NCBI GenBank assembly: GCA_900317935.1
Contig: ONIU01000005.1
Span: 1,726-65,725, forward strand
Reading direction: 5' to 3'
DNA: 64,000 nt
Source: an uncultured bacterium
GTDB taxonomy: Bacteria > Muiribacteriota > Ozemobacteria > Ozemobacterales > Ozemobacteraceae
Part shown: positions 22,143 through 64,000 of the stretch, piece after piece
Layout of the letters: the number at the start of each line of letters is the position of its first letter
Numbering within the stretch: position 1 is the first letter of the stretch
Notes under the pieces: model-generated
Told to the model about the DNA's origin: nothing
Seen by the model: the letters and a program-made list of their open reading frames with translations, nothing else
Databases searched by the model: none
Translations under genes and position numbers: made by a program

Positions 22143-23546
22143 ATGAAAAAGCATTGGTTATACTTAATTTTAGGTTTGGCATTAATTATAAACAGTAGTT
22201 GTGCTGTTAATGCCCAGGATGATGAAGGCGGCTGGTGGGATGTTAGTTCCGAAAGTGATGTAACAATAGATGAAGCATTAGAAACTAAGCCTACAAGCAC
22301 TTCAGAAAGCTCTGAAGAAGCTAAAGATACTGAAAAATCTGAAGAAACAGAAAATAAAGAAGAAGAAAAACAGGTTATAACTTATACTGTAGTTCCAGGT
22401 GATACCCTTTGTTCTATAGCTTTAAGATATCTTGGAAGTGCAAGTAGATATCCTGAAATAGCTGCTCTTAATCCAGAACTTATTTCTGACCCAAATGTTA
22501 TTCTTACAGGTTGGAATTTAAAAATTCAATTGGATGGCGCTGCTCCTGCTGAAGAAGCTGCCGCTGCTGATCCAGAACCTGAAGTTGAAGTTACAGATGA
22601 ATCTTCTGAAAGCAGCGAAGTTGCTGAACCAGAAGAAGAAAAGACAAATGCAGAAAAAATAGCTGAACTTCAGAAAGTTTTAGATGAAGCAAATGGTAAA
22701 TTACCAGAAGGTTTTGGACTTGTAGATTTCAATGGTAATACTGTTAAATATTTAGTAGAAAAAGGTATTATTTCTAAGGAAGAATTAGCTGCTCTTAGTC
22801 CAGCAGATGAACATACCTGGAGAATTAATAACGGTAAGATTGAACTTGTTAATGCGAAAAATGTAGCTTTAACTCCAGAAGAAATTGCTGCATTAGATGC
22901 TGCAAATGCTGCCAAGAAAAATGGTGAAGAAGACGCTGAAAAGATGGGACTTGCCCAAAGAATTGGTAAAATGATTGATGAAGGCGTCGAAAAAGTTGGC
23001 GAAGGCCTTAAGAAAGGCGTCGAAGGCCTTAAGAAAGGCGTCGAAACCGTTGGTGAAGGAATTAAGAAAGGCGTCGAAACCGTTGGTGAAGGAATTAAGA
23101 AAGGCGTCGAAACCGTTGGTGAAGGTGTTAAGAAAGGTGTCGAAACAGTTGGAAAAGGTCTTAAGACTTTCGGTAATTGGCTAAATGATCGTATTGAATA
23201 TAATAGAGTTACAAGAGTCGCCAGAGCTCAGAATGCTTTAGATACTCTTGTTACTACTGGTAAGGTTGTAACTGCACCAGTTAGAGCTCTTGGTAGCGGG
23301 CTTGTAAGTGGAATTAAGGGATTCTTTGTTGGTGGCGAAGATAACGGTTTTGTAAACGGAGCAAAAAAAGTATTTGATGACACTATAGAATCTGCAGCTG
23401 GATTAAAAGATCGTCGTCAGGAAAGAATTGATAATGCATTAGAAAAAGCAAATTATGGTGGTTCTACTACTCACACTAGTTCTAGTGGCACAACTCATGG
23501 CGGCAGCGGTCGTTCATTCGGCGGTGGCGGTGGACATCGTTTTTAA
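22143..23546 (+). CDS. Secreted LysM-domain protein with 11-aa tandem repeats and Gly-rich C-terminus
   Basis: 467 aa with GAGGTG RBS and a signal peptide. LysM motif (YTVVPGDTLCSIALRYLG...YPEIAALNP). GVETVGEGIKK repeats. Terminal GGSGRSFGGGGGHRF. Confidence 0.8.
   Translation: MKKHWLYLILGLALIINSSCAVNAQDDEGGWWDVSSESDVTIDEALETKPTSTSESSEEAKDTEKSEETENKEEEKQVITYTVVPGDTLCSIALRYLGSASRYPEIAALNPELISDPNVILTGWNLKIQLDGAAPAEEAAAADPEPEVEVTDESSESSEVAEPEEEKTNAEKIAELQKVLDEANGKLPEGFGLVDFNGNTVKYLVEKGIISKEELAALSPADEHTWRINNGKIELVNAKNVALTPEEIAALDAANAAKKNGEEDAEKMGLAQRIGKMIDEGVEKVGEGLKKGVEGLKKGVETVGEGIKKGVETVGEGIKKGVETVGEGVKKGVETVGKGLKTFGNWLNDRIEYNRVTRVARAQNALDTLVTTGKVVTAPVRALGSGLVSGIKGFFVGGEDNGFVNGAKKVFDDTIESAAGLKDRRQERIDNALEKANYGGSTTHTSSSGTTHGGSGRSFGGGGGHRF
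22983..23168 (+). repeat. In-frame 33-bp tandem repeat inside the LysM gene
   Basis: Units start at 22983, (21-bp partial) 23016, 23037, 23070, 23103 and 23136. Units 23037-23069 and 23070-23102 are identical. Confidence 0.85.
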
Positions 23547-35518: not shown

Positions 35519-35603
35519 TATAACCTCCAGATTTTTGTTTATTATACAATATTTGAGAGATATCGCAAGGTTTTTGTTTAATGTTTTAGATGTATGATAT
35601 AAG

Positions 35604-35837
35604 AGTTGGAAGTGTTGGAAGGGTTAGAAGTGTTGGAAGGGTTGGAAGTGTTGGAATGGTTAGATGTCTTAGAAGTGTTGGAAGTGTTGGAAGAGTTAGA
35701 AGAGTTGGAAGGGTTGGAAGTGTTGGAAGGGTTGGAAGAGTTGGAAGTGTTGGAAGGGTTGGAAGTGTTGGAAGGGTTAGAAGTGTTGGAATGGTTAGAA
35801 GTGTTGGAAGGGTTGGAAGGGTAGGAAGGGTTAGAAA
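35604..35837. repeat. 26-unit 9-bp tandem repeat (consensus NGTTGGAAG)
   Basis: Counted unit by unit from 35604. Variants are GTTAGAAG, GTTGGAAT and GTAGGAAG. Flanked by ATAAG on the left and GTAACGCTTTGCTGTG on the right, the same flanks that bracket the 4-5 unit tract inside M2 modules. Confidence 0.9.
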
Positions 35838-35865
35838 TGTAACGCTTTGCTGTGTCTTCTAAAGC

Positions 35866-35957: not shown

Positions 35958-38516
35958 TTATTGTCTAAAAAAGTCCTGGGCACTTTTTAAAAGTAAGCGG
36001 AACTTTCCTTTTATAAAAGGTGATTCAGGAAGTGAATGAAGGAAATAACTGCCGTAAAACTTGTTGATAATTCTGTTATCAAGTATCCAGACAGTGCCTC
36101 TGTCTTTTTTTGAACGTATAAGCCTCCCAAAACCCTGTTTAAGCTTTATGGCCGCCATAGGAAGCTGATAGTCCTTAAATGGGTTACCACCATTTTCTTT
36201 TATTTTTTCGTTCCTTGCTTCAAGAACAGGGTCATTTGGTGAAGCAAAGGGCAGTTTAAGGATAATAAGATTTCTTAAAGATTCTCCAGGAATGTCTACG
36301 CCTTCCCAAAATGAATCTGTTCCAAATAACACTGCGTTTCCGTCTTCTTTGAATAATTCTACAAGATATTGTCTATCGAAGTCGCCCTGCTTATAACAGT
36401 TGATTCCTTGTGCTTCTAGTATAGGGCTAATATTATTATAGAACATATTTAAATGTGAATAAGAAGTGCACAGAACCAATGTACCGCCGAGAGATGATTT
36501 GATTATATCAATAATAGGTTGGGAAGCCTGTTCAATAAACAAGGCACTTGATGGGTCTGGTAAATCTGATGGTACAAACAATCTTGATTGTTCTTTATAA
36601 TCAAAAGGAGATTTATATCTTCCTTCGATTAGATTTGCTGAAATCTCTTCATTTGTTAAACCCAGTCTGGTTTTTAAAAAATTAAAGTTACCGCCAGTTG
36701 TCATTGTTCCAGACACCATTATTGTACATGGAATCTTATCGAAGCAATAATCTATCATCTGCTGAGAAATTGTAATCGGCAAAGAAGAATATGAAGTGTA
36801 TTTCCCCGTTTTGCGAACATTTGAAGTAAAGAAATGTACATAATCAGCTCTGTTTTCTGTTTCTAGCTCAAACATCATTTCAAGTCCGTTAGAAACTTCA
36901 TCTAGTCTGCTCGAATAATTATTTAATTCTGTGAAGGGAACTTCATAAATAGAATTATCTTCTTCAAAATCAGGCACAGAACTGTTTAAACGCCTTGCAA
37001 ATTTTTTCATTGAAGCAGATAAATGTTTTAATTCATCTTTCAGCTTTTTTGCTGTTGCACTTAAGATATTAAACTCATTTGAGGCTTCTTGCTTCGGGGT
37101 GACACGCAATCTGTATTCTCCAAGCTGAGTGCTGTCATTTAAAAGAAAACTTGTTATTGAATCGAATAGAACCTTGGAAATATCAGCTATTTCCATTCTT
37201 GAAGGAACAAGTATATCATTTATATCTTTTAAAAGAAGTTCTCTGTCTGAATCTTCTATATCGCCATGTTTAAAGGCTAGTGCGTTCGTTAACGTATAGA
37301 AGGTTCCGGATTCTTTTCTTCCCCGTTTTTGATAAATTTTGTTCATCAACCTTTGAAGTCCTGTAGCTGTAGTTCTGTAGCCAAAATGCTTAGTAGCTGT
37401 TTCTTCAAGATTATGAGCTTCATCCATTATAATTGCTTTGCAGGCTGGAATTACTGCTGTTTGAGAATATTCTGATGTTTCCGCTCTCAAAGCCAAATCG
37501 GAAAACAATAAAGAATGATTTACTACTAAAATATCGGCTTCAGCTGCTTTTCTTCGAGCATTATAAAAGAAGCATTCATTGTAATCCGGGCATTTTACTC
37601 CGGGGCAACTGTCTTTATCACAACAGACTTTATCCCATAAGCTTTCAGATGGAACCCAGGTTAAATCGCTCAAAGAACCGTCAGTCGTTTTTTCCATCCA
37701 GGCTGCTAATTTTTGAAATTGTGGAAATTCTAGTTCATCAAGAAGAAAGTCTGCATTATCACTTGCTGTAGCTTCTTTAACTCTTCTTAAGCAGATGTAA
37801 TTACTTCTACCTTTTAACAGACAATATTTGAAATCAAAAGGAATTATACTTTCAAGAAAAGGTAAATCTTTATCTATGAGCTGATATTGTAGATTTATGG
37901 TATTTGTAGAAACACAGACTCGGCATCTGTTCTTATGTGAGTAAAATATAGCTGGAATAAGATATGCCATACTTTTGCCTATACCCGTTTCACCCTCTAA
38001 TATTGCATGACAGGGACCATTTAAAGCATCTGTTATTTTTCCCATCAATTCTATCTGACCGTCACGTTGCTCATAATTTTTGAGCTTGGACGCAATTGGG
38101 CCTTCTTTCGAAATGTAGGCTATCATCTCTTTTTTGCTTAACTGCTCTGGTTGTTCTTCTATATAAGGTTCAACAACGACATAAAATTCAGAACAGTCAT
38201 TATTGTGGATTGCAAAACCTATTCCGGATTTCCCACAAATTGAAGCAACGCCCATATCGGCTTCTGAAGGTTTTAAGCGTCCTGATGGGTGATTGTGCAG
38301 AAGAACTTCTCCTGGTCTTAAGCTTTTAATAATCGCAGGAGCAGAATCTATTGTTCCTCTGGATATTACACGAACATCTGTATACTGGTCAGGTGCACAA
38401 CAGACTGCAGCTGAACATACTTCACAGCCGCCAGCCTGTTCTATTTCTTCTTTTAGATATTGTCTGTCATATTCATTTAATGTGACAGGTGAGGCTTTTT
38501 TCTTTCTACCAACCAT
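35958..38516 (-). CDS. dinG: DinG/Rad3-family Fe-S helicase with N-terminal RadC-like JAB/MPN metalloprotease domain
   Basis: 852 aa. JAMM motif HNHPSGRLKPSEAD in the first roughly 120 aa. Walker A GETGIGKS, DEAH box IMDEAHNLE, Cys cluster C..CCDKDSCPGVKCPDYNEC, motif V GTDSFWEGVDIPG and motif VI QGFGRLIRS. Confidence 0.8.
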   Translation of the reverse strand: MVGRKKKASPVTLNEYDRQYLKEEIEQAGGCEVCSAAVCCAPDQYTDVRVISRGTIDSAPAIIKSLRPGEVLLHNHPSGRLKPSEADMGVASICGKSGIGFAIHNNDCSEFYVVVEPYIEEQPEQLSKKEMIAYISKEGPIASKLKNYEQRDGQIELMGKITDALNGPCHAILEGETGIGKSMAYLIPAIFYSHKNRCRVCVSTNTINLQYQLIDKDLPFLESIIPFDFKYCLLKGRSNYICLRRVKEATASDNADFLLDELEFPQFQKLAAWMEKTTDGSLSDLTWVPSESLWDKVCCDKDSCPGVKCPDYNECFFYNARRKAAEADILVVNHSLLFSDLALRAETSEYSQTAVIPACKAIIMDEAHNLEETATKHFGYRTTATGLQRLMNKIYQKRGRKESGTFYTLTNALAFKHGDIEDSDRELLLKDINDILVPSRMEIADISKVLFDSITSFLLNDSTQLGEYRLRVTPKQEASNEFNILSATAKKLKDELKHLSASMKKFARRLNSSVPDFEEDNSIYEVPFTELNNYSSRLDEVSNGLEMMFELETENRADYVHFFTSNVRKTGKYTSYSSLPITISQQMIDYCFDKIPCTIMVSGTMTTGGNFNFLKTRLGLTNEEISANLIEGRYKSPFDYKEQSRLFVPSDLPDPSSALFIEQASQPIIDIIKSSLGGTLVLCTSYSHLNMFYNNISPILEAQGINCYKQGDFDRQYLVELFKEDGNAVLFGTDSFWEGVDIPGESLRNLIILKLPFASPNDPVLEARNEKIKENGGNPFKDYQLPMAAIKLKQGFGRLIRSKKDRGTVWILDNRIINKFYGSYFLHSLPESPFIKGKFRLLLKSAQDFFRQ

Positions 38517-39836
38517 TTAGGCTTTGTTTTCGTTTGTCTGTTCTTTTTTTTCAGGTGCTTTAAGAATTGAAAGTGTTTTGATCATTTCTTCATTCTTCAA
38601 TTCTTCTGCTAATTCAAAAATACTCTTATCTTCTTTGGTTTTGACTGTTATATCTGAACCGGCTGAAATAAGAAGTCTGACTGCTTCGAGGTTATTGCAT
38701 CTGATTGCAGCAAGTAGAGGCGTGTCAAAATTATCGTCACGTCTTTCTAATAAGACTCCATAACCTAATAAGGTAGCAAGAACGTCATACTGCTTTTCTA
38801 CAATAGCCATTTGAAGAGGTGTAAAACCGTATTTGTCGCGTGTTTCCGGGTCTGCGCCATTATCTATCAATATTTTGACTATTTCGTAATGACCCATTTT
38901 TGATGCTTCAAGAATAGGTGAATGACCAGAAATTGTTTCACATCTATGAACGTCAGAGCCTTTTTCCAAAAGCATTTTTACAGCGGGTATATTTCCTATT
39001 TGAGAAGCTGTAAGAAGGAGAGTCATGCCCATTTCGTCATTTTCATCCTTCAAAGACGGGTATTCATCGATTAGTTTTGCAAGTTCATCTATTTTGTTTT
39101 CTAATAATAAATCTTTTGCTTCGTTATATTTGCTTGAAATGGTCATTGATTGTGGAATTTTAGAAACTTCTTCAATATATTCAAGCAATCTGTCTTTGGG
39201 TAAATCTTCGTTCTTTTCATCTAAAAGCTTGGTAACTTCAGGAAGACTATTCATTAAAATAGCTGAAATTGTAAGACTTTTACTTTGTCTATAGTTAGAA
39301 AGTAGGCATTCAAGACCCTGAACATATAAAACAGGAATTTTATTGCTTTTTCCAACCCCAGTAAGAAATCTGGCAAAACTGAAGTTTAAACGAGGCTGTT
39401 TGAGTCTTTCAAAGTAGATACATGCATTTTGGGCTTTTTGAATTCTCATTACATGTTCTTTGTCATGGAATGATGTGGTCCAGGCTAGGTGACTTAACTT
39501 GTTGCAGAGCACTGCGTCACCTTTAGCACAGGCTATTTCTGCACAAACAGAAGTTAAAAAGCTTGTTTGAATATAGTCAAAAACAAAGGGGTGGGGTTCC
39601 TGACCTAAGAATTCATTAAGCGCATCGTCATCTCTATCTAGCTTTAAATAACATATAAAAGTGTAATATTTTTGCCACCCAAGCATAATTGGATCAACAG
39701 GCTTTTCAGCATACATCCTTTGTTTCATTTCAGCACAAAGAGCTAGTGCTTTTTCATAATTCTTATTGGTTATAAGATTCATTATTTCTTTTAGATATAC
39801 ATCGTAAAGTTGTTGTTTTTCCATTTTTGTCTCCAT
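38517..39836 (-). CDS. TPR-like helical / ankyrin-repeat protein
   Basis: ORF track starts at TTG 39887; the first ATG is at 39836, and ATG 39824 has GGAG 6 nt upstream. The C-terminal half has 4-5 ANK repeats (GMTLLLTASQIGNIPAVKMLLEKGSDV, GHSPILEASKMGHYEIVKILIDNGADP and others). Its stop abuts the helicase start (TAAATG). Confidence 0.8.
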   Translation of the reverse strand: METKMEKQQLYDVYLKEIMNLITNKNYEKALALCAEMKQRMYAEKPVDPIMLGWQKYYTFICYLKLDRDDDALNEFLGQEPHPFVFDYIQTSFLTSVCAEIACAKGDAVLCNKLSHLAWTTSFHDKEHVMRIQKAQNACIYFERLKQPRLNFSFARFLTGVGKSNKIPVLYVQGLECLLSNYRQSKSLTISAILMNSLPEVTKLLDEKNEDLPKDRLLEYIEEVSKIPQSMTISSKYNEAKDLLLENKIDELAKLIDEYPSLKDENDEMGMTLLLTASQIGNIPAVKMLLEKGSDVHRCETISGHSPILEASKMGHYEIVKILIDNGADPETRDKYGFTPLQMAIVEKQYDVLATLLGYGVLLERRDDNFDTPLLAAIRCNNLEAVRLLISAGSDITVKTKEDKSIFELAEELKNEEMIKTLSILKAPEKKEQTNENKA

Positions 39837-39960
39837 ATTTGGGTGCAATATATTTATTGAGCAGATATCATACCTTTTATTTCTCAATAAAACAATAGTC
39901 TAGGAAAATTTGTTTTGGATGTTTTTTGTAAAAGTTTCACTGTTTTGTTATTAAAATCCC

Positions 39961-40420
39961 GCTTAATCCCCATTTAAGAAAGGGGTAATTATAACAGCTG
40001 ACTGACGACCAACAGGATGTTGGGAGTGCAAGCGAGCGCCAGGATGTCAAGCGAGTCGTAGGGGGCATAAAGCTTCGCAGTGTTACGCTTCTCTGTGGGA
40101 CTCTTCGTTGTGGGACAGCAGCATAACGACTTGTGGGAATTGTTATAAGGGTGAGAAGGGTTGGAAGGGTTGGAAGGGTTAGAAGTGGAACGCTGCGGTG
40201 TGGTACACTTCGTTGTGGGACGTTTCACTGTGGTTATTGTCGAACAACTCCCACAGGCAGCGTTAGCTGCAGTCTCACAAGTTGTGTTAGCAACAGTCCC
40301 ACAGAGGCTTTAGCCTCGTTCCACCAACCACCAATATCTCCATCTTAGGTCTTGTGTCTCAAGTTCTGGTCTTATATCTCCATCTTTGGTCTTGTATCTC
40401 AATTTTAATGGCTCTTGATT
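39961..40420 (+). repeat. Composite intergenic repeat locus R4 (degenerate M1 + M2 + short tandem tracts)
   Basis: Direct repeat AGGATGT..CAAGCGAG x2 (40014-40056). M2 at 40069-40325, nearly identical to 41735-42006. Then a CCACCAACCACC / GGTCTTGT(A/G)TCTC tract to about 40410. Confidence 0.85.
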
Positions 40421-41540: not shown

Positions 41541-41734
41541 GTAAGACCCCTTTCGGTTCCTGTGGAACCACTTTCCCAGCAATGCTATCGCATTCTGGGG
41601 GCAGATCGTTTTCTCAAAGAAGCGCCCCCAGTTTTGCAATTAGAGATGGCGACGTAGTGATCATCCATCCCGATGCTCCCCCAGAGTTTGAAAAACTGCT
41701 GGGGGAGCTGTCACGAAGTGACTGAGGGGGTCTT
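41541..41734 (+). repeat. Intergenic structured module M1, long copy
   Basis: Complementary AAGACCCC (41543-41550) and GGGGTCTT (41727-41734). Hairpins GGTTCC/GGAACC (41555-41569), AATGC/GCATT (41581-41594) and GTCAC/GTGAC (41710-41722). GAAGCGCCCCCAG core with a duplicated CCCCCAG. Confidence 0.85.
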
Positions 41735-42006
41735 AAAGCTTCGCAGTGTTACGCTTCGTTGTGGGACAGCAGCATAACTACTTGTGGGAATTGTTATAAG
41801 AGTGAGAAGGGTTGGAAGGGTTGGAAGGGTTAGAAGTGGAACGCTGCGCTGTGGGACACTTCGTTGTGGGACGGCTGTTTACAGCCTGTGGTAATAGTCA
41901 ACAACAAACACAGGCAGCGTTAGCTGCCGTCTCACAAGTTGTGTTAGCGACAGTCTCACAAGTTGCGTCAGCAACAGTCCCACAGAGGCTTTAGCCTCGT
42001 CCCACC
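41735..42006 (+). repeat. Intergenic palindromic module M2 (TGTGGGAC iterons / GTCYCACA + hairpins), full copy
   Basis: Left arm has YTGTGGGA(C/A) x5 around a 4-unit GGTTGGAAG tract. Right arm has GTCTCACA, GTCTCACA, GTCCCACA, each followed by a 5-6 bp stem hairpin (GGCAGC/GCTGCC, GTTGC/GCAAC, GAGGC/GCCTC). Confidence 0.9.
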
Positions 42007-42012
42007 TACTTC

Positions 42013-42630
42013 TCACCTGCTAGGTGGTTTATCAATATACATCAGGCCGCTTGAATATAAATCTTTGAAGGTAACGATACCTTTTCCTTTTAAAACATCA
42101 AAGAAGTTCAGCAGTAGAACTTTGACTGCTTCTGTATCGTTCATAGCTCTATGAGCATCAACAAGATTATAGCCAAAATATTTTGCAGAATTTTCAAGCT
42201 TGTTTGACGGTAGTTTTAAAAGTTTCCTAGATAAATTAAGTGTGCAGAGCGATGGCGATTTATAGTCGATTCCAAGACATTCTTTAAAGAAATATTCAAA
42301 AAAAGACCAGTCGAAAGGCACATTATGAGATACAAATATATTGTTTTTCAGCATATTATGAAGAACAGGTGCTAATTCGCTGATAGTTGGAGAATCCTTA
42401 ACCATTTCGTCTGTTATATGCGTTATGTTTGTTATTTCTTCAGGAATATGACATTCAGGGTTTACAAAGGATTCAAATCTTTCTTCTTTTCCATCTTCGT
42501 ATAGAATTATTGCAACTTCTGTTATTTTTGCCGGTCCTGGTTTGAAGCCGGTGGTTTCTAAGTCTAATATAGCATAAGGAAGTTTTGAAATTTCGGTGTT
42601 TATATACTTATCAATAAAAGAGTTATTCAT
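42013..42630 (-). CDS. DnaQ-like 3'-5' exonuclease (DEDDh family)
   Basis: 205 aa. Exo I AILDLETTG, Exo II FVSHNVPFDWSF and Exo III HRAMNDTEA. Confidence 0.8.
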   Translation of the reverse strand: MNNSFIDKYINTEISKLPYAILDLETTGFKPGPAKITEVAIILYEDGKEERFESFVNPECHIPEEITNITHITDEMVKDSPTISELAPVLHNMLKNNIFVSHNVPFDWSFFEYFFKECLGIDYKSPSLCTLNLSRKLLKLPSNKLENSAKYFGYNLVDAHRAMNDTEAVKVLLLNFFDVLKGKGIVTFKDLYSSGLMYIDKPPSR

Positions 42631-44171: not shown

Positions 44172-44556
44172 CTAAAAGAAGAAGCGCCCAAAGCGAGACT
44201 GAGATGGCTTTAAAGTAGTGGAATGCTTTGCTGTGATACACTTCGTTGTGTGACAGCAGCATAACTGCTTGTGGGAATTGTTATAAGAGTTAGAAGGGTT
44301 GGAAGGGTTTAAAAGAATGAAGTGTAACGCTGCGCTGTGGGACACTTCGTTGTGGGACGGCTGTTTACAGCCTGTGGTAATAGTCAACAACAAACACAGG
44401 CAGCGTTAGCTGCCGTCTCTCAATTTGCGTCAGCAACAGTCCCACAGAGGCTTTAGCCTCGTCTCACCATCTGACAACCGAGGGCAGATCGTTTTTCCCC
44501 GAAGCGCCCCCAGTTTAGCAATTTGAGCTGTCAGCTTGCTGACTGAGGGGGTCTTC
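44172..44556 (+). repeat. Composite intergenic repeat locus R6 (degenerate M1 - M2 - short M1)
   Basis: GAAGAAGCGCCC at 44178. M2 at 44212-44468. Short M1 at 44480-44555 with a GTCAG/CTGAC hairpin (44530-44543) and a GAGGGGGTCTT end. Lies in the divergent promoter region between the MATE gene and the first channel gene. Confidence 0.85.
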
Positions 44557-50747: not shown

Positions 50748-51110
50748 TCTTCTAACTTGAAACTCGTAACTTGTAACTAAGTGTTACGCTTCGCTGTGGG
50801 ACACTTCGTTGTGAGACAGCTGTTTACAGCCTGTGGAAATAGACAACAATAAACACGGACAGCTTTAGCTGCCGTCTCACAGATTGCTCGCAATCGTCTC
50901 ACAGAGGCTTTAGCCTCGTTCCACTGTCTAAATATCGAGGTCAGAACTTTTTACTCGAAGAAGCGCCCCTAAAATGCCTTCGGCATTGCTGGGGGAGCTG
51001 TCACGTAGTGACTGAGGGGGTCTTTAAGATAATTCTAAATTCTCACTCACTACCTATCACCCACCACTAAACTTGTAACTTGTAACTTAAAACTTAAAAC
51101 TTATATCTAA
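50748..51110 (+). repeat. Composite intergenic repeat locus R7 (heptamer tract - short M2 - short M1 - tracts)
   Basis: CTTGTAAC-type tract at 50748-50780. M2 without the 9-mer tract at 50781-50924. M1 at 50937-51024 with AATGCC/GGCATT (50973-50987) and GTCAC/GTGAC (51000-51012). CACC and AACTTGT/AACTTAA tracts extend to about 51110. Confidence 0.85.
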
Positions 51111-51739: not shown

Positions 51740-51746
51740 TTAGTAA

Positions 51747-51893
51747 GATATAAGATTTAAGATATAAGATATAAGAAATAAGATATAAGATTTAAGATAT
51801 AAGATATAAGAAATAAGATATAAGATTTAAGATATAAGATATAAGATGTAAGAAATAAGTTTGAAGAAGATAGATAAGCTTTAAGCTATAAGC
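51747..51893. repeat. Heptamer tandem array (GATATAA family), 35-bp higher-order period
   Basis: 16 clean units at 51747-51858 in the pattern [GATATAA GATTTAA GATATAA GATATAA GAAATAA] x3.2, then 5 degenerate units to 51893. Starts 8 nt after the lepB stop. Confidence 0.9.
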
Positions 51894-53195: not shown

Positions 53196-53765
53196 AGATT
53201 AAGTTACAAGACACAAGTTATAAGATTCAAGTTACAGATTAAAATCTTATGTCTCCATCTATGGACTTGTATCTCAATTTTTGGTCTTAAATATTACAAC
53301 AACTAACACGGGCAGCTTTACCTGCCGTCTCACAGATTGCGTTTGCAATCGTCCCACAGAGGCCTTAGCCTCGTATCACCTTCATCTTATAATCTTGTAT
53401 CTTGTAACTTATGACTTGTAACTTATAACTTATAACTAAAGGTCTCTCGTCAGCTGTCCTTAAAATTCACAACTACCACTACTCACTTATATCACTAATC
53501 ACTAATCACTTATCACTTATCACTAATCTTATATCTTCTATCTTATATCTTGTAACTTGTAACTTGTAACTTGTAACTAAGTGTTACGCTTCGCTGTGGG
53601 ACACTTCGTTGTGGGACGTTTCACTGTGGTAATAGTCAACAACTAACACGGGCAGCTTTAGTTGCCGTCTCACAGATTGCGTCAGCAATCGTCCAACAGA
53701 GGCTTTAGCCTCGTATCACCTACCACCAACCACTCACCACTTACCACTTACCACTTACCACCTAC
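53196..53765 (+). repeat. Composite intergenic repeat locus R9 (tracts - M2 right half - about 200 bp heptamer tracts - short M2 - CCACTTA tract)
   Basis: M2 right half at 53293-53380. Heptamer tracts at 53381-53580 (CTTGTAA, CTTATAA, ATCACTA/ATCACTT, CTTATAT). Short M2 at 53581-53720. (CCACTTA)n tract at 53721-53765. Confidence 0.85.
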
Positions 53766-63837: not shown

Positions 63838-64000
63838 TTAATGTTGTGGGACGGCTGTTTACTGCTTGTGGAAATAGTAATCAATTCACACAAGCAGCTA
63901 TGCTGCTGTCCCACAACGTAGTGTCTCACAGCGCAGCGTATCACTTTTAACCCTTCCAACTCTTCTCACCCTTCTAACCCTTCTCACAATTATAACTGAA
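63838..64000 (-). repeat. M2-family module in inverted orientation, rearranged, runs off window
   Basis: GTTGTGGGAC (63843-63852) and GTCCCACAAC (63908-63917) form the outer stem; CTGCTTGTG (63862-63870) and CACAAGCAG (63889-63897) form the inner stem. Then the reverse complement of ACGCTGCGCTGTG.GAC and of a 5-unit GGTT(G/A)GAAG tract. Confidence 0.85.

Follow-up and report, generated by a model that had tools for sequence, protein, structure and literature searches.

In a 64,000-nucleotide stretch of DNA from an uncultured bacterium of the family Ozemobacteraceae (assembly GCA_900317935.1, contig ONIU01000005.1, positions 1,726 to 65,725; hereafter the window), a gene encoding an 852-amino acid (aa) helicase lies directly behind a gene encoding a protein with tetratricopeptide repeat (TPR)-like helices and ankyrin repeats. 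The helicase carries a RadC-type JAB domain at its N terminus. Together, our results support an explanation that, taken as a whole, we regard as very probable: the 852-aa helicase belongs to a known family, RadC-like DinG, and is an ordinary chromosomal representative of it. Its adjacency to the ankyrin gene is best read as inherited synteny and not as a two-component system.

This differs from a sequence-only reading of the same DNA, which had put the two genes forward as a candidate uncharacterised surveillance or repair system. The JAB-DinG fusion has been known since 2011, when it was reported by Iyer, Zhang, Rogozin & Aravind, who already argued that the JAB domain displaces a DnaQ exonuclease (PMC3239186). 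The subgroup owes its name, "RadC-like DinG", to a 2025 review that calls it uncharacterised (Comput Struct Biotechnol J; PMC11981726), and we found the pairing with an ankyrin gene in Riflebacteria alone. As the architecture has been in print since 2011 and has had a name since 2025, what the window adds is one sequence and a lineage-specific neighbour.

A DinG-type helicase core behind a RadC-type JAB domain

Pfam matched Helicase_C_2 (158.9 bits), DEAD, ResIII and DEAD_2 in the helicase, together with RadC (PF04002), so all the domains that the sequence-only reading had named for checking were recovered. We aligned 14 full-length sequences from Riflebacteria, KSB1, Acidobacteriota, Bacteroidota, Anaerobranca and Acidimicrobiia. 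Walker A residues G178 and K181, the DEAH box (residues 365-368) and motif VI (Q794-R801) were identical in all 14, as were Cys242, Cys309 and Cys315, while Cys304 was present in 12. The DinG/XPD hallmarks first read from the letters (Walker A, DEAH, four cysteines and motif VI) are thus invariant or nearly so. All four cysteines (C242, C304, C309 and C315) of the predicted Fe-S domain that marks RadC-like DinG proteins are present, and the last three have the 5- and 6-residue spacing of C194, C199 and C205 in Escherichia coli DinG.

The AlphaFold2 model of the full-length protein (predicted local distance difference test (pLDDT) 83.8) pointed to the same family, as the best Foldseek match was E. 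coli DinG bound to single-stranded DNA (6fwr, E 2e-39), with 6fws also among the top matches. The best NCBIfam model was YoaA, at 553.4 bits and short of its equivalog cut-off of 680. The model for DinG of Bacillota, PRK08074, scored 520.8 bits and likewise did not reach its cut-off, 789. Every catalytic motif of the predicted DinG/YoaA-type core is intact in the sequence.

The RadC match is modest in the whole protein (22.3 bits, against a gathering cut-off of 22.1) and rises to 28.6 bits when residues 1-125 are searched alone. The N terminus matches the canonical JAMM pattern E..HxHx7Sx2D, and E32, H74, N75, H76, P77, G79, P83, S84 and D87 were invariant in all 14 aligned sequences from different phyla. 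When we examined 21 N-terminal domains from genomes of further phyla, H74, H76, S84 and D87 were again invariant and E32 was at least 90% conserved; PF04002 matched all 21 of these orthologous domains and Prok-JAB matched 8. A profile of these domains searched against the Protein Data Bank (PDB) retrieved the RadC homologue 2qlc (E 2.5e-8), then AfJAMM weakly. In the AlphaFold2 model, the domain has the order alpha-beta-beta-alpha-beta-alpha-beta-beta. The claim that the first ~120 residues hold an intact RadC-type JAMM motif is therefore borne out by the isolated-domain score, the 2qlc match and the invariant residues. The JAB domain is real and, as far as its residues tell, looks catalytically intact, and the invariance of the motif indicates a real catalytic activity that would be coupled to a repair helicase.

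One further protein touches on this domain. P0243 (993 aa) contains 12 separate stretches that match JAB query residues 87-118, which suggests a protein in which one fragment from the C-terminal part of the JAB domain is repeated, unless the assembly is at fault.

The JAB domain occupies the place of a DnaQ-like exonuclease

In ExoDinG proteins, the sister group made up of the DnaQ-DinG fusions of Bacillota (for example Staphylococcus aureus DinG, PDB 9ii8 and 8zef; PRK08074), a closely related core also carries an extra N-terminal hydrolase. There, however, the N terminus has a DEDDh RNase_T fold, whereas the window protein has a JAB/MPN fold, and a Pfam scan of the window helicase found no RNase_T domain. 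Alignment to PRK08074 divides the model between two window genes: the helicase covers positions 234-929, and a stand-alone DnaQ-like exonuclease covers positions 5-182. In our set of loci, the helicase match of 12 relatives that lack the JAB domain is immediately preceded by a DnaQ-like exonuclease region, an arrangement that fits fused ExoDinG proteins. Thus, as the sequence-only reading had proposed, the JAB domain of RadC-like DinG sits where related DinG proteins hold the exonuclease.

The same reading was also right about the separate exonuclease, in which the RNase_T domain was confirmed. This gene lies 3.5 kb from the pair, with a divergently transcribed methyltransferase gene between. 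We also considered a general linkage of a DnaQ-like exonuclease to JAB-DinG genes and rejected it, as tblastn found a nearby homologue only at loci L087 and L014. At L001, Pfam identified an RNase_T gene ~8 kb from the helicase, cut off at the end of the locus.

RadC-like DinG proteins are widespread

The N-terminal 145 aa of the reference protein used in the 2025 review, Desulfuromonas soudanensis A0A0M4DKS9, are matched by the window protein at 36% identity (E 2e-24), and full-length tblastn gave 36-39% identity to loci of Desulfuromonadales, Geobacteraceae and Thermodesulfobacteriota. Relatives at 97-100% coverage and 37-42% identity were found in KSB1, Acidobacteriota, Bacteroidota, Anaerobranca and Acidimicrobiia; homologues at 44-95% identity are annotated almost wholly as Riflebacteria, Rifleibacteriota or Ozemobacteraceae, which places the window in this lineage. 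When a single genome from each species was scanned, 33 loci (L006-L037 and L061) had a match that spans the JAB domain. Their hosts are a Riflebacteria-type metagenome-assembled genome, Thermodesulfobacteriota, Geobacteraceae, Desulfuromonadales, Gemmatimonadota and Terriglobia, as well as Treponema, Brachyspira, Sumerlaeota, Halanaerobium, Fusobacteria, the Planctomycetes-Verrucomicrobia-Chlamydiae (PVC) group and Spirochaetes. The fusion is present in at least 10 lineages. When residues 1-125 were searched with HMMER against 1.84 billion representatives of 50% identity clusters, 539 matched with E<=1e-3, of which 261 have E<=1e-10; among the best 150 matches, ~62 are 800-935 aa long with an N-terminal JAB domain and most others look like fragments. 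RadC-like DinG is thus widespread, with hundreds of 50%-identity clusters in many phyla.

The window protein shares with the described subgroup a length of ~810-890 aa, the N-terminal JAB domain with its E/H/H/D residues, the 4-Cys domain (listed as "4C" in the review table; PMC11981726) and a YoaA-like core. In the review, the predicted core of RadC-like DinG is most similar to YoaA, and the proteins retain a YoaA-like C-terminal helix although their hosts lack HolC (PMC11981726). Two features set the window protein apart: its lineage, Riflebacteria, is not listed in the parts of the text of PMC3239186 and PMC11981726 available to us, and in the window's genus the gene is immediately preceded by a TPR-ankyrin gene specific to the lineage. 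YoaA of E. coli, the HolC/chi-associated paralogue of DinG, has the same core and four-Cys Fe-S domain but no JAB domain, and the window protein scores below the YoaA equivalog cut-off. Stand-alone RadC/YicR (PDB 2qlc) combines a helix-hairpin-helix (HhH) with a JAB domain of the same subtype, including the HNHPSG..PS..D motif, whereas the window protein lacks the HhH and has its JAB domain fused to a helicase.

Another DinG-like family, CasDinG (Csf4) of type IV CRISPR systems, was rejected, with TIGR03117 scoring 97 bits against a cut-off of 400. None of the tandem repeats in the window is a CRISPR-like array, and no cas gene is present among the open reading frames (ORFs) listed for 33-44 kb, the part of the window screened for cas genes.

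An ankyrin gene restricted to Riflebacteria

The TAA stop of the ankyrin gene (38517-38519) directly adjoins the ATG of the helicase (taaATG). Both this junction and the TPR-like and ankyrin composition noted from the letters were upheld. The ankyrin gene probably starts at ATG 39836 (439 aa) or ATG 39824 (435 aa) and not at TTG 39887; ATG 39824 has a GGAG 6 nt upstream and is the start used by an 83%-identical homologue, P0123. Pfam placed ankyrin repeats at residues ~290-445 of the ORF and found no family in the N-terminal half. AlphaFold2 predicts an all-alpha protein (pLDDT 91.6), in which five ankyrin repeats follow a TPR-like solenoid of helical hairpins, and we saw no catalytic fold in the model. 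In a fold search with the model, ankyrin-repeat and DARPin structures dominated the matches, with no informative match for the N-terminal half.

Full-length relatives of the ankyrin protein were found in Riflebacteria-type assemblies only. Conservation is strong in their N-terminal domain (76 invariant columns), which appears to be restricted to Riflebacteria and is a candidate new domain family. The conservation of this ~265-residue domain is seen, for example, in RIQKAQNACIYFERL...LNFxFARFLTGFGKSN.

We compared the arrangement of the two genes across loci. The ankyrin gene adjoins the helicase in eight of ten Riflebacteria loci and stands beside it nowhere outside Riflebacteria. The two genes run in one direction, ankyrin before helicase, only in the window and in its two close relatives L086 (helicase 86% identical) and L087 (78%), and the junction varies even among these: the codons abut in the window, L086 has a gap of 88 bp and L087 an overlap of 14 nt. 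At L001/L002, L006, L088 and L089, where the helicase is 57-62% identical, the genes are convergent, tail to tail, in the order PFK (-), helicase (+), ankyrin (-), a pseudopilin-like gene of the N_methyl type (-) and CMAS (+). Two Riflebacteria-type loci, L003 (60%) and L004 (49%), lack an ankyrin gene within 8 kb of the helicase. Since orientation differs by lineage and is co-directional only in the window's genus, the operon arose recently, at genus level, when genes were rearranged inside a syntenic block, and is not a conserved functional pairing. Conserved linkage of the two genes, for which the sequence-only reading had suggested a survey, is thus confined to Riflebacteria, and is operonic in the window's genus only.

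In the more distant Riflebacteria, the upstream pseudopilin-like gene either overlaps the ankyrin gene or directly adjoins it. This suggests that the true partner of the ankyrin protein, if it has one, is related to pili or secretion and is not the helicase. The pseudopilin-like genes, all on the (-) strand (L001 12276-12740, L088 10252-10650 and L089 9870-10256), encode N_methyl prepilin-type proteins with conserved cysteines. A further ORF (+) of 84-86 aa lies between helicase and ankyrin gene in L001/L002, L006 and L088, though not in L089. It is found at L001 10716-10976, L003 10625-10885, L006 13089-13340 and L088 8685-8939, directly after the helicase, also in the ankyrin-less L003, and has the motif MERTI..LVGKRK.TA.NVQKILT.WGC.IKTRLGLHDG... 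Homologues of the pseudopilin-like gene and of this ORF are absent from the 64-kb window.

Housekeeping neighbours and dispersed repeats

The surroundings of the helicase are those of a housekeeping gene. From their translations, we take the window neighbours to include a 5'-nucleotidase-type phosphoesterase, RlmE, two ChrA-type transporters and a MATE-type transporter; DUF6935, the CMAS-like methyltransferase and the exonuclease were confirmed by Pfam. GC content is flat along the window. In other lineages, the helicase neighbours PFK, a ClpX-like AAA ATPase, GlyRS, an HD protein and a PBP. Clustering of the ORFs within 5 kb of the helicase at 43 JAB-DinG loci yielded no family common to different phyla, only lineage-specific blocks of synteny (Gemmatimonadota and Riflebacteria). 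PADLOC, run on the pair and its neighbours, returned only generic model matches (DinG core, ankyrin, DEDDh and methyltransferase). We conclude that the contexts of RadC-like DinG genes are housekeeping ones, and a location in a defence island, which the sequence-only reading had raised, receives no support from these neighbours or from the generic PADLOC matches. That reading had added that it would be undercut if the fusion were ubiquitous as the sole housekeeping DinG of its lineage, with no conserved tie to the ankyrin gene. Our results go largely that way, with a widespread fusion in housekeeping contexts and a tie confined to Riflebacteria.

Tandem and composite repeats do flank the pair on both sides, as had been claimed (35590-35860 and 40070-40400), but they are not specific to it. 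They belong to a composite element of ~250-300 bp that contains a run of GTTRGAAGK, CTTCGTTGTGGGAC motifs and internal inverted repeats. The run comprises 3 copies of GTTRGAAGK in the elements at 40 kb and 41 kb and ~27 at 35.6 kb. At least seven copies of the element are present in the window, all intergenic, and two of these flank the methyltransferase gene instead of the helicase pair. Counts of its words are far above expectation (32 against 0 expected for a 17-mer and 14 against 0.11 for a 14-mer). One copy folds better as single-stranded DNA than shuffled controls (z = -3.3), and an Rfam scan of the window gave no match. What flanks the gene pair is an intergenic element spread genome-wide, and it sets no boundary to the pair. 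The element may be a miniature inverted-repeat transposable element (MITE)-like or repetitive extragenic palindromic (REP)-like component of this Riflebacteria genome. Boundaries of a mobile element were ruled out because copies occur at seven or more intergenic sites in direct orientation (the copy at 63860-64000 is listed as (-)).

Arrays of 7-bp tandem repeats were also recorded at 51744-51867 and 53386-53765 (TAAGATA, 16.6 copies; runs of CTTATAA, CACTAAT, CTTGTAA and CACTTAC). Both stretches are intergenic, and partial copies of the composite repeat lie near these clustered arrays.

Alternative readings of the gene pair

Could the two genes form a dedicated surveillance or anti-phage system delimited by the repeats? 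Such a system would fit three observations: in the window the stop codon of one gene touches the start codon of the other, the genes are co-directional in two close relatives, and the ankyrin and DinG-like proteins each match PADLOC models. However, those matches are limited to the generic helicase core and ankyrin repeats, the helicase lacks an ankyrin neighbour in all loci outside Riflebacteria and in two within, and in four independent Riflebacteria lineages (L001/L002 counting as one) the genes are convergent, with the ankyrin gene in an operon with the pseudopilin-like gene. As the neighbours are housekeeping genes, GC content shows no anomaly, mobile-element genes are absent and the repeats are dispersed at seven or more sites, two of them around the methyltransferase gene, we regard a dedicated system as very improbable. 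An accessory role is also unlikely, though less so: the ankyrin protein would be a Riflebacteria-specific adaptor of the helicase, comparable to HolC for YoaA, that for example recruits it to a partner or substrate, with no part in defence. Adjacency persists across helicases of 57-95% identity while other neighbours are rearranged, the ankyrin protein has a highly conserved N-terminal domain, and a YoaA-like C-terminal helix kept in hosts without HolC (PMC11981726) leaves room for another partner. Yet the convergent orientation in most lineages means that the genes are not co-regulated there, the tight operon partner of the ankyrin gene elsewhere is the pseudopilin-like gene, and L003 and L004 do without a nearby ankyrin gene. 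Moreover, plain synteny explains the adjacency, since within this block the ankyrin gene also stays beside the CMAS-like methyltransferase, BaxI and others.

Several points nevertheless weigh against our preferred explanation, that of an ordinary RadC-like DinG protein beside a syntenic neighbour. Adjacency in eight of ten Riflebacteria loci has survived both the flip in orientation and turnover of genes on the other side of the helicase, and selection could have kept the two genes close. In the window's genus, where they abut or overlap, the genes are almost certainly co-transcribed. The persistence of adjacency leaves a role as a helicase accessory as a minority possibility for the ankyrin protein. 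In addition, the mechanism outlined below for this biochemically uncharacterised family is pure inference.

A proposed activity for the JAB domain

By analogy with E. coli DinG and YoaA, the helicase would be active where replication intermediates are damaged or stalled, loading on 5' single-stranded DNA and translocating 5'-3' along it with the energy of ATP. The tethered JAB domain could then hydrolyse, in cis, whatever the motor exposes or meets. To our knowledge, every JAB domain that has been characterised biochemically is an (iso)peptidase. For this reason, and because the full E/HxH/S/D motif, Ser84 included, is invariant, we slightly favour a zinc (iso)peptidase that would clear DNA-bound or cross-linked proteins over a nuclease. 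The alternative, that the JAB domain is a nuclease or simply a DNA-binding module and stands in functionally for the DnaQ 3'-5' exonuclease found in ExoDinG, is a substantial possibility, if the less likely one. A nuclease role was the proposal of Iyer et al., who reasoned from the exonuclease (PMC3239186). It draws on the displacement by a non-homologous domain argued in 2011, on the ExoDinG relatives confirmed in our locus set and on the fusion of RadC JAB domains elsewhere to HhH, primase and ArdC DNA-binding modules (PMC3239186). RadC itself is described as a protein of no known function (Attaiech et al. 2008, cited by PMC11981726 and PMC3239186), and a decision between peptidase and nuclease would bear on this long-unresolved question. 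We found nothing relevant in the literature on RadC biochemistry or on a role in repair of DNA-protein cross-links; in cross-link papers, "RadC" stood for unrelated terms.

In eukaryotes, DNA-protein cross-link repair pairs an Fe-S 5'-3' helicase, FANCJ, with a zinc metalloprotease, SPRTN. A more far-reaching proposal would make RadC-like DinG a single-chain helicase and protease that clears DNA-bound proteins, with the Riflebacteria TPR-ankyrin neighbour as its recruiting adaptor. We consider this combination very unlikely. If true, RadC-like DinG would be a bacterial functional analogue of FANCJ and SPRTN, recruited by the adaptor to its substrate or to the replisome. The likeness lies in joining an Fe-S helicase of the XPD/DinG family to a zinc metalloprotease and is one of analogy, not a claim of homology for the protease. 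In contrast to the JAB domain, SPRTN is a zincin on a separate polypeptide, and the tie of RadC-like DinG to cross-link repair is by analogy only.

Feature coordinates and a further repeat

The features discussed above are collected in the table.

Table. Positions of genes, domains and repeats in the window
Feature	Position	Strand	Basis or remark
RadC-like DinG gene, 852 aa	35958-38516	-	ORF map, Pfam and NCBIfam
Helicase core, residues ~140-852	35958-38099	-	Walker A GxGKS 178-182, DEAH 365-368, arch region, Helicase_C_2 668-831
Fe-S cluster region, Cys242/Cys304/Cys309/Cys315	37572-37793	-	14-sequence alignment
RadC-type JAB/MPN domain, residues ~12-118	38163-38483	-	Pfam, profile search, model
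JAMM motif H74-N-H76-PSGRLKP-S84-EA-D87	38256-38297	-	Alignments; E32 upstream at 38421-38423
TPR-like and ankyrin protein gene	38517-39836	-	ORF map, Pfam, AlphaFold2
Ankyrin protein, helical N-terminal half	~39033-39836	-	AlphaFold2, conservation
Five ankyrin repeats	~38565-39032	-	Pfam, AlphaFold2
Stand-alone DnaQ-like DEDDh (RNase_T) exonuclease	42013-42630	-	Pfam and NCBIfam; context
9-bp tandem array GTTRGAAGK, ~27 copies	35590-35860	+	Context; member of dispersed family
Composite element, full copy	about 40040-40340	+	Context
Composite element, further full copies, near-identical	41700-42010 and 44190-44480		Intergenic
Composite element, partial copies	~50750-50900, ~53560-53700, 63860-64000	- (63860-64000)	

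Away from these features, the window contains a 33-bp tandem repeat at 23022-23166 (4.4 copies, 91% matches), which a 21-bp repeat at 22998-23045 overlaps. If the region is coding, the 33-bp unit probably encodes an 11-residue peptide repeat.

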